Positions 3,143-22,159 of a stretch of DNA of 33,839 nucleotides are shown here, piece after piece. This stretch comes from Kiritimatiellia bacterium. Its GTDB lineage: Bacteria; Verrucomicrobiota; Kiritimatiellia; RFP12; UBA1067. The notes under the pieces are model-generated. The model made no database searches. It had not been told where the DNA came from and saw only the letters and a list, made by a program, of their open reading frames with translations. Location: contig JBGUVV010000195.1 in the NCBI GenBank assembly GCA_045220525.1, positions 1-33,839 of the forward strand. The letters are read 5' to 3'. Within the stretch, counting starts at the first letter, position 1; each line of letters starts with the position of its first letter. A program made the translations under genes and the position numbers.

Positions 3143-3174
3143 CTAACATACGAGCAACAGCGGCAAATCTGACA
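3143..3174 (-). promoter_or_regulatory. Bipartite motif copy A (TGTCAGAT-N14-CGTATGTTAG), upstream of the HtrA-like gene
   Basis: Reverse-strand TGTCAGAT is at 3174-3167, the 14-nt spacer at 3166-3153 and CGTATGTTAG at 3152-3143. It belongs to a six-member family (see findings). Confidence 0.4.
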
Positions 3175-3254
3175 GCCACCTTATCCTGCCAGACTTCTGC
3201 CGTGCAATAGTTAGGGCAAAGCGTTTGTCAGATTTAACATGGGTCGTTGACTAC

Positions 3255-3316
3255 TTGCGATTTCCTCTGATGCCTATTTGCGGTTTCCTCTGATACCTAC
3301 TTGCGGTTTCCTCGAC
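3255..3316 (+). repeat. 23-bp tandem repeat, about 2.7 copies (ttgcgRtttcctctgatRcctaY)
   Basis: Units are at 3255-3277, 3278-3300 and a partial unit at 3301-3316, read directly. Confidence 0.85.
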
Positions 3317-3913
3317 AAGAATGTCTTAAGGGCTGCCGTGATTTGGCTGCTGGCCCACACATCTCAGCTTTTTACAATTGAAGAGTTCGGAGCTAAAACT
3401 GGTCTCACGAGAGAAACATCACAGACATATATAGCTGCATTGACAGCACTTTATCTCTTCGACAAAGTCCCCGCATGGTCGAAAAGCGACTATGACAAAA
3501 TCGGGAAAAGGCCAAAGTACATTGCTACTGATATCTCGCTTGCCTCAAACATGTTGGGCTGGGACGAAGACAAGGCGATTTTTGACGAGCACATAAATGG
3601 AAAACTTGCAGAGTCGTGGGCGTATCATGAGATAGTTGCTCAGGCAGACATTTCAGGCGACTACAGCATAACGCATTACAGAGACAGCGACAAGCGCGAG
3701 ATAGACTTTGTTGTCGAACGCGACGACGAGCATTGCGCCGGAATAGAGGTAAAATGCGGCTCTGCCGTCGGGGATGAAGATTTCAAGCACCTTAAATGGT
3801 TTCGCACAAAATTCGACATGGAACGCTTTGTTGGAGTCGTCCTTTACACAGGAAACGACGTGCTGAGTTTTGGCGATCACATGTACGCCGTCCCTTTTGC
3901 GAACTTGACATGA
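3278..3913 (+). pseudogene. C-terminal (DUF4143-type) fragment of a COG1373-like AAA ATPase; the N-terminal ATPase domain is missing
   Basis: The 211-aa ORF starts at a TTG inside the tandem repeat. The body (LTRETSQTYIAALTALYLFDKVPAWSK...KRPKYIATDISLASNMLG...YRDSDKREIDFVVE...GIEVKCG) matches the winged-helix plus DUF4143 C-terminal half of roughly 400-aa ATPases. No Walker motifs are present. Confidence 0.55.
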
Positions 3914-4035
3914 CACTTGATCGCCGCGTTTAGTTCCGGACACGACGTGACAATTTTTGAACCACAAAGGAGCAATTTTCTGACAAAAACCGAACCAACA
4001 TTATCTATTCTCCCCACACAGGAACAACGGCTATT

Positions 4036-4170
4036 CTACCGCCTTTTGCTGTGCTTCGAAAGAAAATCCAGCTCGTAAAGTCCCTTGCCCTTGACCCAGA
4101 CCCGAATATTCGCACTGCCGAGGTCAATCCCAATGTCGGCAAATCCAAACAGTTTCGACATAATGTTCAT
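4036..4170 (-). pseudogene. Truncated N-terminal fragment (44 codons) of a second MreB-like paralog
   Basis: My translation is MNIMSKLFGFADIGIDLGSANIRVWVKGKGLYELDFLSKHSKRR*. At both DNA and protein level it is clearly homologous to the first roughly 31 codons of the 5556-6299 gene (MSIFSKLLRFNDIGIDLVAANMRVWVKGKGL). Confidence 0.55.
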
Positions 4171-4522
4171 TATCAAATAGATACGTCAGATCTACCGGCA
4201 GGAAAACCGTGTCAAGCGCAATCTCGCAAGCCTTGTCAACAGCAAAGAAAGGCCATAATCCTATCTCCAGCGCACCAGGCATACCGCAGCAGTCTGGCCG
4301 TGGGTGACGAAACGAATATAGCGACACCGGCTTCCACATTTCAGCCGTGCAAAGGTACGGATACGGAGCGCAGGCGTATGGTAGATCAACGCCAAGGCGA
4401 GAACGCACATTTTCGTCCCCCGTACGCACCAAATAGTTGGCGCACCACGACACGCCTACCGCCATCAGGCATCCAATCGACATAGCCATTCCAAGTTTCA
4501 TCATTCGATTCTTTGTTTTCAT
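4124..4522 (-). CDS. YceK/DUF1375-like putative lipoprotein
   Basis: I place the start at ATG 4522 (MKTKNRMMKLGMAMSIGCLMAVGVSWC). The track's GTG at 4540 lies inside the promoter-like motif. The segment GLWPFFAVDKACEIALDTVFLPVDL resembles the YceK core (LDLPFSLVFDTLLLPIDI, from memory). The 3' end overlaps the MreB-like fragment in another frame, so the true stop is uncertain. Confidence 0.45.
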   Translation of the reverse strand: MKTKNRMMKLGMAMSIGCLMAVGVSWCANYLVRTGDENVRSRLGVDLPYACAPYPYLCTAEMWKPVSLYSFRHPRPDCCGMPGALEIGLWPFFAVDKACEIALDTVFLPVDLTYLFDNEHYVETVWICRHWD

Positions 4523-4543
4523 GGTTTTTGTTAAGCACACATC

Positions 4544-20597: not shown

Positions 20598-21198
20598 AAG
20601 TAGATTTATAAATTCTACGCGATAGTTGCAAACATTCTTTCTTCCGCTTGCTCAGGTCGATTAAGTCTTTAAGGGAATAGGCTTTTAACATTGCCTTTCC
20701 GAAATGGTATGCTGCCGCATAGCACTCAGGAACGGCATAAAAGTGTCGTGTAAAATTAAACCATGTAGGAGGATTAAGAGGTGCATTCCTGAATTGTTTG
20801 GCAACCACGCATGCTACAGACTCATATAGCCAAAACAGTTCTCGCGGAGCTATCCTACTGGAAAGATGTTGGAGGACGTGTATGCATTCATGCCTAATCA
20901 TTTTTAGATAATCAGTCCGAGCAACTTTCCCCTTTAGGTCTTGATATGACAAAACATGAACATGCGAATCTGTGTATGCGAAACAATTCCTTATGCCGAA
21001 GTCATTACGCGAGGCCGTTCTTAATTCATTTTTGAAATCGAACTCATTAAGAATCTGGATTGGTATCCGGATCTGAGATGGCAGAACGGGGATGTTGAAC
21101 AAGCGAACATCCTTCATAATCGAGTGAGATAAGAATCTCTTTAGACCATAATCAACGTCGCAATTGATAAACTGAAGAGTGAATACGCTGTTATTCAT
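20587..21198 (-). CDS. Hypothetical HExxH protein (possible zinc metallopeptidase), convergent with the UvrA-like gene
   Basis: I place the start at ATG 21198 (MNNSVFTLQF) after GGAGAG; the track's TTG start is at 21231. The motif is MIRHECIHVLQH. The 3' ends of this gene and the UvrA-like gene overlap by 11 nt. Confidence 0.5.
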   Translation of the reverse strand: MNNSVFTLQFINCDVDYGLKRFLSHSIMKDVRLFNIPVLPSQIRIPIQILNEFDFKNELRTASRNDFGIRNCFAYTDSHVHVLSYQDLKGKVARTDYLKMIRHECIHVLQHLSSRIAPRELFWLYESVACVVAKQFRNAPLNPPTWFNFTRHFYAVPECYAAAYHFGKAMLKAYSLKDLIDLSKRKKECLQLSRRIYKSTFNK

Positions 21199-21579
21199 TG
21201 GCTCTCCACATGCTGGTTTAGAGCGGGACAATGACGATATTCTTCATGCCACAATGCCATCAGAACCCATAATATTCATTACGATATTTCATCACTTATC
21301 AAATATCAGCAAATGTAATTCACACTCCCAATGTCGGAATAACCCCTCCATGTCGTGATGATGCGGATTAACAAATATAAACACCCTTCTGATTCATCCT
21401 GTGCGTCTTCCCGGTGAAGTTTCTCAGGCTTCCATCTGACGCCTCCCATGACCGCAGGGTTTCTGCGCGGGAAATCTGTGCATAGTATATCATAAATTCA
21501 GACCTGTGGACGAAGAATCGCGAAATTCCCGCCCACAGGCCAATCCGGGCTCTCTCTGCCGGACGCTCGCTATGAGCAT

Positions 21580-21611
21580 ACTAACATACGAGCGAGCGCG
21601 GCGAATCTGAC
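21580..21611 (-). promoter_or_regulatory. Bipartite motif copy E (TGTCAGAT-N14-CGTATGTTAG), with no ORF immediately downstream
   Basis: TGTCAGAT is at 21611-21604, the spacer at 21603-21590 and CGTATGTTAG at 21589-21580. It is part of a 71-nt direct repeat (21542-21612) shared with copy F. Confidence 0.35.
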
Positions 21612-21828
21612 AAGCTGGAGGAGAGGGGACGGGAGCCAGAGTTGGAGAATTGAGTTGGAGGCCGAGAATGGTGTGAAAATCCCCCTTCTGTTTCTCCTGC
21701 TCTTTGTGGCTAATCAACAACAACGAATTCGAGGTTTGTGCCAAGGCAACAGCAACCACAGTCGCGGCGAGAAAAAGTATGGCAACGTTAAAGTTAGTCC
21801 GAAATATGACCAAGTTTATCGTGATGTC

Positions 21829-22006
21829 CTAATACCTTTTACTGACAAGCCATGCGCGGAGAAACGGATTAAAAAAGCGATATTCCTTGTCATGGATGAA
21901 CAGCATTCTGTCCATCCTTCACGCAGGATGTCAAGCGTTTCTGTAGCTCTGGACGAGGGCAGAACACGTCACCAGACACGACACAGCCATATTTGAATGG
22001 TTTCAT
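21829..22006 (-). pseudogene. Collapsed remnant of an ATPase_2/DUF234-type ATP-binding protein gene (N-terminal about 39 codons joined out of frame to a C-terminal tail)
   Basis: MKPFKYGCVVSGDVFCPRPELQKRLTSCVKDGQNAV resembles the typical N-terminus (NPFKFG..V.G..F..R..EL..L) of this family. A different frame then reads HDKEYRFFNPFLRAWLVSKRY*, resembling the family's C-terminal end. The Walker A region and body are absent. Confidence 0.4.
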
Positions 22007-22127
22007 GTGCGCATTATACCACATCGTCATCGCCGAGCGCAACGAGAAATTCAACCATTTGGTTGAATTTTCCTCCATGTTTCTCACCTATCCGGGCTCT
22101 CTCTGCTGGACGCTCGCTATGAGCATA

Positions 22128-22159
22128 CTAACATACGAGCAAGCGCAGTGAATCTGACA
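22128..22159 (-). promoter_or_regulatory. Bipartite motif copy F (TGTCAGAT-N14-CGTATGTTAG), upstream of the ATPase remnant
   Basis: TGTCAGAT is at 22159-22152, the spacer at 22151-22138 and CGTATGTTAG at 22137-22128. It lies within the 71-nt repeat at 22090-22160. Confidence 0.35.

Follow-up and report, generated by a model that had tools for sequence, protein, structure and literature searches.

A strictly spaced two-box motif as candidate promoter of a kinase-associated ECF sigma factor family in ruminant-gut Kiritimatiellae, with an associated small RNA and leader cassette

What reads the strictly spaced two-box motif that recurs in front of minus-strand genes in a 33,839-nt stretch of Kiritimatiellia DNA (contig JBGUVV010000195.1 of assembly GCA_045220525.1, hereafter the window), and what does it switch on? 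An earlier note on this DNA described six copies of the motif, A to F, and proposed that they form a possible regulon of an alternative sigma factor of the extracytoplasmic function (ECF) type, whose gene lies in the same window. Comparative evidence, in the form of strict spacing, conservation limited to the two boxes and co-localisation with the sigma gene, supports that proposal, and we put at about 0.78 the probability that the six motifs are promoters read by the neighbouring kinase-associated ECF sigma family of ruminant-gut Kiritimatiellae. Two of the copies, E and F, most likely drive a small structured RNA and not a protein gene.

The pattern TGTCAGAT-N14-YGTATRKKAK has six exact matches in the window, all on the minus strand and all intergenic, and none in 100 dinucleotide-preserving shuffles, in agreement with the six copies and constant 14-nt spacer first described. 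A relaxed search permitting up to 3 mismatches returned 10 sites compared to 0.49 expected. Each of the six copies lies between open reading frames (ORFs) and aims at a downstream feature on the same strand. Copy A (3143-3174) is a candidate ECF-type promoter before the gene for an HtrA-type protease (1584-3065), copy B (4544-4575) would be the promoter of a DUF1375 (YceK-like) lipoprotein gene (4124-4522), copy C (6331-6362) that of a 247-aa MreB-like protein (5556-6299), and copy D (12078-12109) that of a membrane protein of ~505 aa (10512-12029) that gave no family match. Copy E (21581-21612, one nucleotide away from the 21611-21580 originally assigned to it) precedes a full-length candidate small RNA, and copy F (22128-22159), also of ECF type, begins 31 nt past the stop codon of the sigma gene, close to the 30 nt first estimated.

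The copies fall into two sub-families, as the earlier note had it, and both alignment and repeat comparison show the division to be real. Copies B, C and D have the common flanks ...CGTATAGGAT..TGTG.GCTTAACAA, with a leader block that reads GCTTAACAA or GGTTAATCAA. The interval of 21-31 nt claimed between second box and start codon fits B (21 nt from the end of the box to the ATG) and C (31 nt), whereas for D the value is 24 or 48 nt. Copies A, E and F have the common flanks ...CGTATGTTAGnaTGCTCAT.GCGAGCGT and a longer block downstream, with 93% identity between E and F across 74 nt. Sites without a second box, namely TGTCAGAT on the plus strand at 3226 and 6389 and TGTAAGAT 81 nt before B and D, are treated as degenerate copies. 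Copies B and D also have ~80 nt of common upstream sequence (4629-4656 and 12163-12190) that includes a degenerate second box pair (TGTAAGAT...), and a 93-nt fragment at the 3' end of the lipoprotein gene (4078-4170) matches the 5'-terminal part of the MreB-like gene (6207-6299) at 77% identity. Both likenesses are signs of cassette-like duplication and decay.

Relatives carry the same motif. We searched 80 metagenome contigs with sigma homologues (70-100% identical) for TGTCAGA and CGTA separated by 14-16 nt and found 66 sites, with identical spacing in 66/66. Fifty-eight of these are downstream of the sigma gene (199 kb searched) and eight upstream (177 kb searched), the latter in loci in which the same neighbour genes are inverted. 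Contigs fetched through four sigma homologues have the motif in 8/8 cases; three copies are present in each of the five whose flanks extend 8-10 kb to either side, and across sigma from them the ~10 kb of housekeeping genes in the fetched contigs is free of the motif. In dozens of homologous loci a copy is located 21-70 nt past the sigma stop codon, with other copies within ~3 kb. In the gene-called loci L001-L008, 10 of 12 sites are fully intergenic and the remaining two intrude no further than the final codons of the gene before them. A positional control based on ORFs (an ORF start within 130 nt, or a site inside a long ORF) was uninformative because 72% and 89% of random sites qualify in G+C-rich DNA.

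In order to count the pairing of the boxes, we used the window plus 88 loci (588 kb). Of 87 distinct TGTCAGAT sites, 62 are followed by CGTAT, in 60 cases after exactly 14 nt and in the other two after 15 and 22 nt; conversely, 53 of 142 distinct CGTATA sites have TGTCAGAT at -22. From 93 instances with distinct spacers the consensus is tTGTCAGATTy-N12-CGTATAt.a, in which the positions not fixed by the search (T at -1, TT at 7-8, T at 26 and A at 27) are 77-99% conserved. Information is present only in the two boxes; the spacer holds ~0 bits and the flanks are unconstrained. Conservation of two boxes around an empty spacer is the signature of a two-box promoter and not of a copied repeat. The arrangement has the features of an ECF-type promoter, namely two boxes, a fixed spacer of ~16-17 nt, a -10 element containing CGT and an unconstrained spacer sequence. 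We assign TGTCAGATT as the -35 element and CGTATA as the -10 element; aligning CAG to the usual ECF 'AAC' gives a 16-nt effective spacer to 'CGT'. Searches of the literature on Kiritimatiellae sigma factors and on the motif returned nothing relevant, and none of the papers searched gave the promoter consensus.

The motif was also sought blindly, without use of the sigma factor, by scanning one genome per species in 185,579 species for TGTCAGATT-N13-CGTATA. With 15 fixed bases and 596 Gb of sequence, ~1,100 chance matches are expected, and most of the matches listed are indeed single sites in unrelated taxa, at chance level. The figures that follow are among the 120 loci listed. At least 23 of the 120 belong to Kiritimatiellae or 'Verrucomicrobia bacterium' gut metagenome-assembled genomes (MAGs), and among the matches listed every locus with two or more sites is from such a MAG. 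A sigma homologue (63-83% identical) plus the adjoining kinase was recovered in 11 of the 120 loci listed, and the other Kiritimatiellae loci listed have the same neighbouring genes.

The sigma gene itself (22191-22838, minus strand) encodes an ECF (group 4) protein of 215 aa with DADDMVQ in region 2.2. The identity proposed for it is confirmed by matches to TIGR02937 (53.7 bits against a cut-off of 42.9, covering residues 27-190 of 215) and Pfam Sigma70_r2 (E=7.7e-10); a PDB sequence search gave no match. There are 1309 homologues, of which the top 120 are 79-100% identical, the named ones being Kiritimatiellae MAGs, and contigs with sigma homologues originate from ruminant-gut metagenomes. 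Directly upstream is the gene for a Hanks-type Ser/Thr kinase of 552 aa (22862-24517, minus strand; Pkinase E=1.6e-18), composed of a cytoplasmic kinase domain, one transmembrane segment (residues 291-309 by hydropathy) and a C-terminus of about ten to twelve 14-aa repeats (LAKRSAENKxLxxD). These units are encoded by a 42-nt tandem repeat within the gene (23072-23574, minus strand), and the repeat domain is predicted to form an extracytoplasmic coiled coil. At the sigma loci from the blind scan, a kinase adjoins sigma in 11/11 cases. Neither the gene calls nor the Pfam/NCBIfam matches of the sigma neighbours include an anti-sigma factor. Activation of the sigma factor by the kinase is what the gene order would suggest, by analogy with other systems. 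The partner kinase also has a paralogue inside the motif-bearing region, as had been noticed, consisting of a 444-aa Ser/Thr kinase (6515-7849, minus strand; transmembrane segment at ~residues 279-297) just upstream of copy C. The two genes are 70-87% identical in DNA (7097-7807 versus 23753-24460) and both match Pkinase; no sigma gene adjoins the paralogue.

Could the copies simply be a dispersed repeat, such as a repetitive extragenic palindrome or miniature inverted-repeat transposable element (REP/MITE) or a recombination site in a variable island, with their position relative to genes incidental? The setting would suit such an element. G+C content is ~0.63 at both window ends and falls to a mosaic of 0.41-0.56 from ~1.5 to 24.5 kb, copies B and C as well as E and F are recent duplicates, and relatives contain promoter-less fragments of the cassette to which A, E and F belong. 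Nevertheless, non-paralogous copies conserve only the two boxes, among 93 different spacers and unrelated flanks, in place of conservation over a whole element; terminal inverted repeats and target-site duplications are both lacking; and position is not independent of genes, as every copy aims at a downstream gene or RNA. Moreover, genes for HtrA, the ATP-binding cassette (ABC) exporter, a small peptide and MreB-like proteins carry the motif in divergent genomes in which sigma is 63-88% identical. The earlier note had itself raised a REP/MITE-like origin as an outcome that would overturn its proposal, and we consider this explanation very improbable. Somewhat less remote, though still unlikely, is that the boxes are the operator of a DNA-binding regulator, for instance a response regulator of the OmpR/PhoB type, and not sigma elements. 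PhoB boxes contain TGTCA, as does the first box here, and in L002 and L003 a response regulator gene (Response_reg plus Trans_reg_C) lies immediately upstream of sigma. However, neither box repeats the other, be it directly or in inverted form. Sigma anchors every locus, and the response regulator is missing from most of them and from the window. Past the boxes of B, C and D, no second -10/-35 pair shows conservation. In addition, a short and fixed distance separates the second box from the conserved start of the RNA (~5-10 nt), and start codons follow it at 20-60 nt, as fits a -10 element.

The motif might also be a genuine ECF-type promoter that is read by a different sigma factor encoded elsewhere, the neighbouring sigma being just an island gene. 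The link between motif and sigma is one of position, and ECF-rich genomes of the Planctomycetes-Verrucomicrobia-Chlamydiae (PVC) group encode many sigma factors (PMC7826278). Against this stand the copy that, in dozens of contigs, closely follows the end of the sigma gene of this family, with its companions near by, and the presence of the sigma factor in 11 of the 120 loci listed from a scan that made no use of it. We regard this as the best placed of the alternatives, at odds of roughly one in ten. That the motif is read by the neighbouring sigma family is what we infer, and several observations weigh against it. The 'AAC' usual in ECF promoters is missing from the -35 box, the sigma-4 domain is not called separately by Pfam, and the 120 loci listed give neither per-genome counts nor distant regulon members. 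Upstream of sigma, L002 and L003 carry the OmpR-type response regulator and not a kinase, and L004 carries a Fic-like gene. The sigma sequence (...LNDVDADDMVQVVF...) keeps the acidic D-A-D-D in region 2.2, and for this reason the phospho-switch of the kinase-linked group ECF43 cannot be assumed and the protein is not to be filed as ECF43; an adjacent Hanks-type kinase without an anti-sigma factor among the annotated neighbours is present as in that group, but the S/QTTA replacement of the acidic motif is not. Finally, some genomes have two or more sigma paralogues, and we therefore assign the motif to the sigma family and not to one gene. In L001 and L004, two sigma paralogues lie no more than 8 kb apart and have separate neighbours, a kinase or some other gene, and several sensors might feed one promoter set.

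Housekeeping transcription in the window appears to use other elements. Sites of the extended -10 class TGnTATAMT number 10 in the window compared to 0.66 expected, and their presence before the tRNA-Ser gene, the kinase-sigma operon and core genes upholds the view that the ECF motif is not the housekeeping consensus. The canonical promoters named in the earlier note are present, namely TTGCAC-N17-TATAAT at 1533-1561 (minus strand), TGGTATAAT at 24663-24671 (minus strand) before tRNA-Ser (24538-24625, minus strand), and TGCTATAAT at 24717-24725 (plus strand) before the NahK-like gene. Further extended -10 elements are TGATATAAT at 24525-24533 before the kinase-sigma operon, TGGTATACT at 3106-3114 before HtrA, TGATATACT at 21484-21492 after the copy E RNA and TGGTATAAT at 22013-22021 after the copy F RNA (all minus strand); others precede the gene starting at 30012, a radical-SAM operon and a 367-aa gene. 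No ECF motif is found upstream of the kinase-sigma operon, even at 3 mismatches. Given this absence and the extended -10 element in its place, the sigma gene is not autoregulated via the motif, and the sigma factor is thus probably made constitutively and controlled after translation. Because the target motif is not upstream of the sigma gene, the usual route of motif prediction would miss this consensus (PMC7826278).

Taken in order, the circuit may run as follows. The kinase-sigma operon would be transcribed constitutively from its housekeeping extended -10 element, the membrane-anchored Hanks-type kinase would sense an envelope signal via its extracytoplasmic repeat domain and activate sigma, and the holoenzyme of sigma and RNA polymerase would start transcription a few bases past CGTATA. 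In the window its targets would be HtrA (A), the lipoprotein (B), the MreB-like protein (C), the membrane protein (D) and an RNA of ~95 nt (full at E and truncated at F), to which relatives would add an ABC exporter and an operon with a 45-aa peptide.

Across genomes, the features that recur directly downstream of the motif are the non-coding RNA, the 45-aa peptide gene, the ABC exporter, HtrA and MreB-like proteins. HtrA is under the motif at copy A, in L163 and, with a 15-nt spacer, in L002 and L003, and it lies behind a full cassette in L027; MreB-like genes are under the motif at copy C and in L007, L163 and L186. The peptide has a conserved N-terminus (MTPNDIATDISGLKP...) and a variable C-terminus, and its gene is followed by one for a protein of ~320 aa that matched no family. 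The ABC exporter (ABC_membrane plus ABC_tran) that adjoins the peptide gene has a second motif copy, which would drive it. In L001 these genes are at 11595-11732 (peptide), 10557-11519 and 11784-13436, all on the minus strand, and the same genes are found in L002, L015, L018, L133, L144 and L148. The peptide-exporter module, which is absent from the window, looks like a ribosomally synthesised and post-translationally modified peptide (RiPP), bacteriocin or signalling-peptide module. The target set is envelope-oriented, and the candidate regulon is compact, comprising HtrA, the MreB-like protein, lipoproteins, membrane proteins and the peptide-exporter module.

Copies A, E and F are parts of a conserved cassette with a non-coding RNA, which was missed in the earlier note. 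Its order is ECF promoter, three-hairpin RNA of ~95 nt and housekeeping promoter, followed in relatives by a structured leader of ~240 nt. The RNA body is conserved after the motif copy behind the sigma stop codon in dozens of loci, and its conservation starts ~6-8 nt past CGTATA. Hairpin P1 is GCUC-N5-GAGC, or UGCC-N4-GGCA in a variant class, and is located wholly downstream of the second box; the inverted repeat GCTCG...CGAGC previously described as spanning that box is not conserved in relatives. P2 is UCCGG-CAGAGAGAGC-CCGGA and covaries to CCCGG...CCGGG, and P3 is a long GC-rich hairpin followed by five or six U in most relatives. In 26 sequences, 90% of cells are paired in this structure versus 31-49% in slid controls, nine pairs are changed on both sides versus 0-2, and the covariation score was reached by 0/500 shuffles. 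A covariance model of the RNA (R1) was built without the promoter; every full-length copy (>60 bits) is on the sigma strand with the motif directly upstream. Applied to the blind-scan loci, R1 matches Kiritimatiellae loci only, with no match in ~600 kb of other taxa. An ECF promoter, a structured body under conservation and a candidate intrinsic terminator are all present, and the RNA would presumably be a stable product.

In the window, the copy E RNA (21491-21580, minus strand; ~90-95 nt) is the full-length candidate, with an R1 score of 91.4 bits (E=3e-22) and a minimum free energy of -42.2 kcal/mol (z=-4.24). Here P3 is followed by AAUUUAU, a weaker U-run than in relatives, and a simple terminator scan did not flag P3 in the window. 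The copy F RNA (22044-22127, minus strand; R1 45.8 bits, E=7e-10) is truncated: it keeps P1 and P2, has P3 exchanged for another hairpin, a variant also seen in L009 and L010, and is followed by its TGGTATAAT element and an ATPase-gene remnant. At copy A the cassette has collapsed (3106-3174, minus strand) to the motif, a P1 remnant (3127-3139) and TGGTATACT, leaving two promoters before HtrA. Rfam 15 at gathering threshold, applied to the window and nine loci, returned only a tRNA and one AdoCbl-II riboswitch, both elsewhere, and in E-value mode on the small RNA and leader regions the best match had E=0.28. Promoter-less and partly degenerate bodies, containing P2 and the start of P3, are present in L004 (12550-12655), L079 (2089-2193), L019 (2554-2656), L006 (2789-2876) and L027 (5398-5496), fused to a different 3' part and then AATTTGGTATAAT. 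The cassette appears to have been reshuffled in front of other genes.

Immediately past P3 is the extended -10 element TTTTTGGTATAAT, and in relatives this is followed by the ~240-nt leader, which opens with AGAUUUCCCGCGC and is represented by 30 distinct copies. Examples behind a TGGTATAAT promoter are at 6844-7100 in L055, 8284-8510 in L048 and 4255-4010 (minus strand) in L161. RNAalifold predicts 66 pairs in the leader, 10 of them with compensatory changes, and in its long helix GCGUC(ACGUGA/GCAAGA/GGAUGA)AAGCCUGAGA pairs with UCUCAGGCGCCUC(ACGUGA/UUGCGA/AUCCGA)UGC. The P2 loop and 3' stem of the small RNA, C(A/U)GAGAGAGCCCGG, are exactly complementary to the invariant leader segment CCGGGCUCUCUCAG over a site of 13-15 nt that is invariant on both sides. 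In 36 of 37 occurrences CCGGGCUCUCUCAG is on the same strand, 211-377 nt (mostly 275-285) downstream of the P2 loop. RNAduplex on the whole small RNA and leader gave extreme values (reached by 0-4 of 200 shuffles) that are not meaningful, as the calculation ignores intramolecular structure. The genes behind the leader are highly variable and encode secreted or envelope proteins, including Sel1-repeat proteins, zinc-ribbon membrane proteins, lipoproteins, HtrA in L027 and a large Gly-rich protein. The window retains a leader remnant of ~96 nt (21382-21477, minus strand) that opens with AGAUUUCCCGCGC and stops before the complementary segment, and no intact complementary leader site is present in the window. 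One contig labelled Limosilactobacillus gorillae (CAVJWR010000025.1, L204) carries the Kiritimatiellae-type leader RNA and promoter motif and is probably mis-binned in that MAG.

One tentative interpretation, to which we give rather less than even odds, is that this is a modular riboregulatory cassette, in which the P2 loop mimics one strand of the leader helix and could invade that helix in trans or in cis, such that the choice of promoter sets the leader fold and downstream expression. In trans, RNA released at P3 would invade the leader helix, and in cis, transcription from the ECF promoter would read through P3; the gene slot of the cassette would hold interchangeable genes for envelope or secreted proteins. 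If true, this would be an uncommon design of circuit, in which a sigma gene has a riboregulator of its own just past the stop codon.

The remaining genes of the region include those for an ADP-ribosylglycohydrolase (4672-5526) and a ParE toxin (7881-8243), both on the minus strand. Three tandem 23-nt repeats (TGAC/CTACTTGCGRTTTCCTCTGA) at 3248-3316 are located between copy A and a truncated DUF4143 gene, overlapping its annotated start. On the plus strand, an operon at 14007-20597 encodes two radical-SAM proteins, a methyltransferase (PADLOC mad2, 9e-18) and a UvrA-like double ATPase of 1264 aa (mad3, 9e-64, and mad8, 3e-30). The operon, located where the G+C content of the window is lowest, is a MADS-like module for defence against phage, and no ECF motif is in front of it. 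That the low-G+C region is an element integrated at tRNA-Ser is unsupported, with no integrase among the Pfam matches of the 20 large ORFs scanned and no tRNA-Ser 3'-end repeat among the repeat families listed for the window. In relatives, the interval from sigma to HtrA is variable.

Kinase-linked ECF sigma factors of the PVC group are known almost only from gene neighbourhoods, and as they are not autoregulated, standard target prediction fails for them (PMC7826278). For one such non-autoregulated family, in a lineage that is uncultured but abundant in the ruminant gut, the locus described here gives a precise promoter consensus, a compact envelope-oriented candidate regulon and, in the small RNA and the leader, two candidates for new families of structured RNA with built-in complementarity. 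ECF groups linked to kinases without anti-sigma factors are documented (PMC7826278, PMC8999054, PMC13147305) and include ECF43, ECF59-62, ECF217, ECF267 and ECF283 (PMC7826278). Direct phosphorylation has been shown for EcfP and EcfK of ECF43, in which the uncharged S/QTTA, carrying the phospho-acceptor Thr, replaces the acidic DAED of region 2.2 (PMC8999054, PMC13147305). As in EcfP/PknT of Vibrio parahaemolyticus, EcfK/PknS of Xanthomonas citri and the PVC groups ECF59-62 and ECF217, the sigma gene in the window adjoins that of a transmembrane Hanks-type kinase, and as in ECF43 and the kinase-linked PVC groups, its regulon would be envelope-related and its gene is not autoregulated (PMC8999054, PMC13147305, PMC7826278). 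Unlike ECF43 with its S/QTTA phospho-switch, the window sigma keeps DADD, and unlike other kinase-activated ECF systems, the extracytoplasmic part of the kinase is a predicted coiled coil of 14-aa repeats.

A further parallel is with sigma-E (RpoE) of E. coli, for which HtrA/DegP and small RNAs are classic regulon members. In both cases an ECF sigma factor would drive a periplasmic HtrA/DegP protease together with small RNAs (MicA, RybB and MicL in E. coli) that have their own ECF promoter and an intrinsic terminator, and, like MicL and DapZ, the RNA described here lies where a coding region ends and might use the terminator of that gene. In contrast to sigma-E, a kinase would take the place of RseA proteolysis in control, the RNA gene directly follows that of sigma, and it is part of a fixed cassette with a housekeeping promoter and a leader bearing a complementary site; no sequence or Rfam relationship to MicA, RybB or MicL is found. 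At the level of the promoter, those of the sigma-W/X/M type in B. subtilis read TGAAAC/TGTAAC-N16-17-CGTA/CGAC. The motif resembles them in its TGnnAn -35 element, its 16-nt effective spacer and a -10 element that opens with CGTA, and differs from them in a -35 core of TCAGA and not AAC, a -10 element that extends to CGTATA, and its occurrence in an unrelated phylum.

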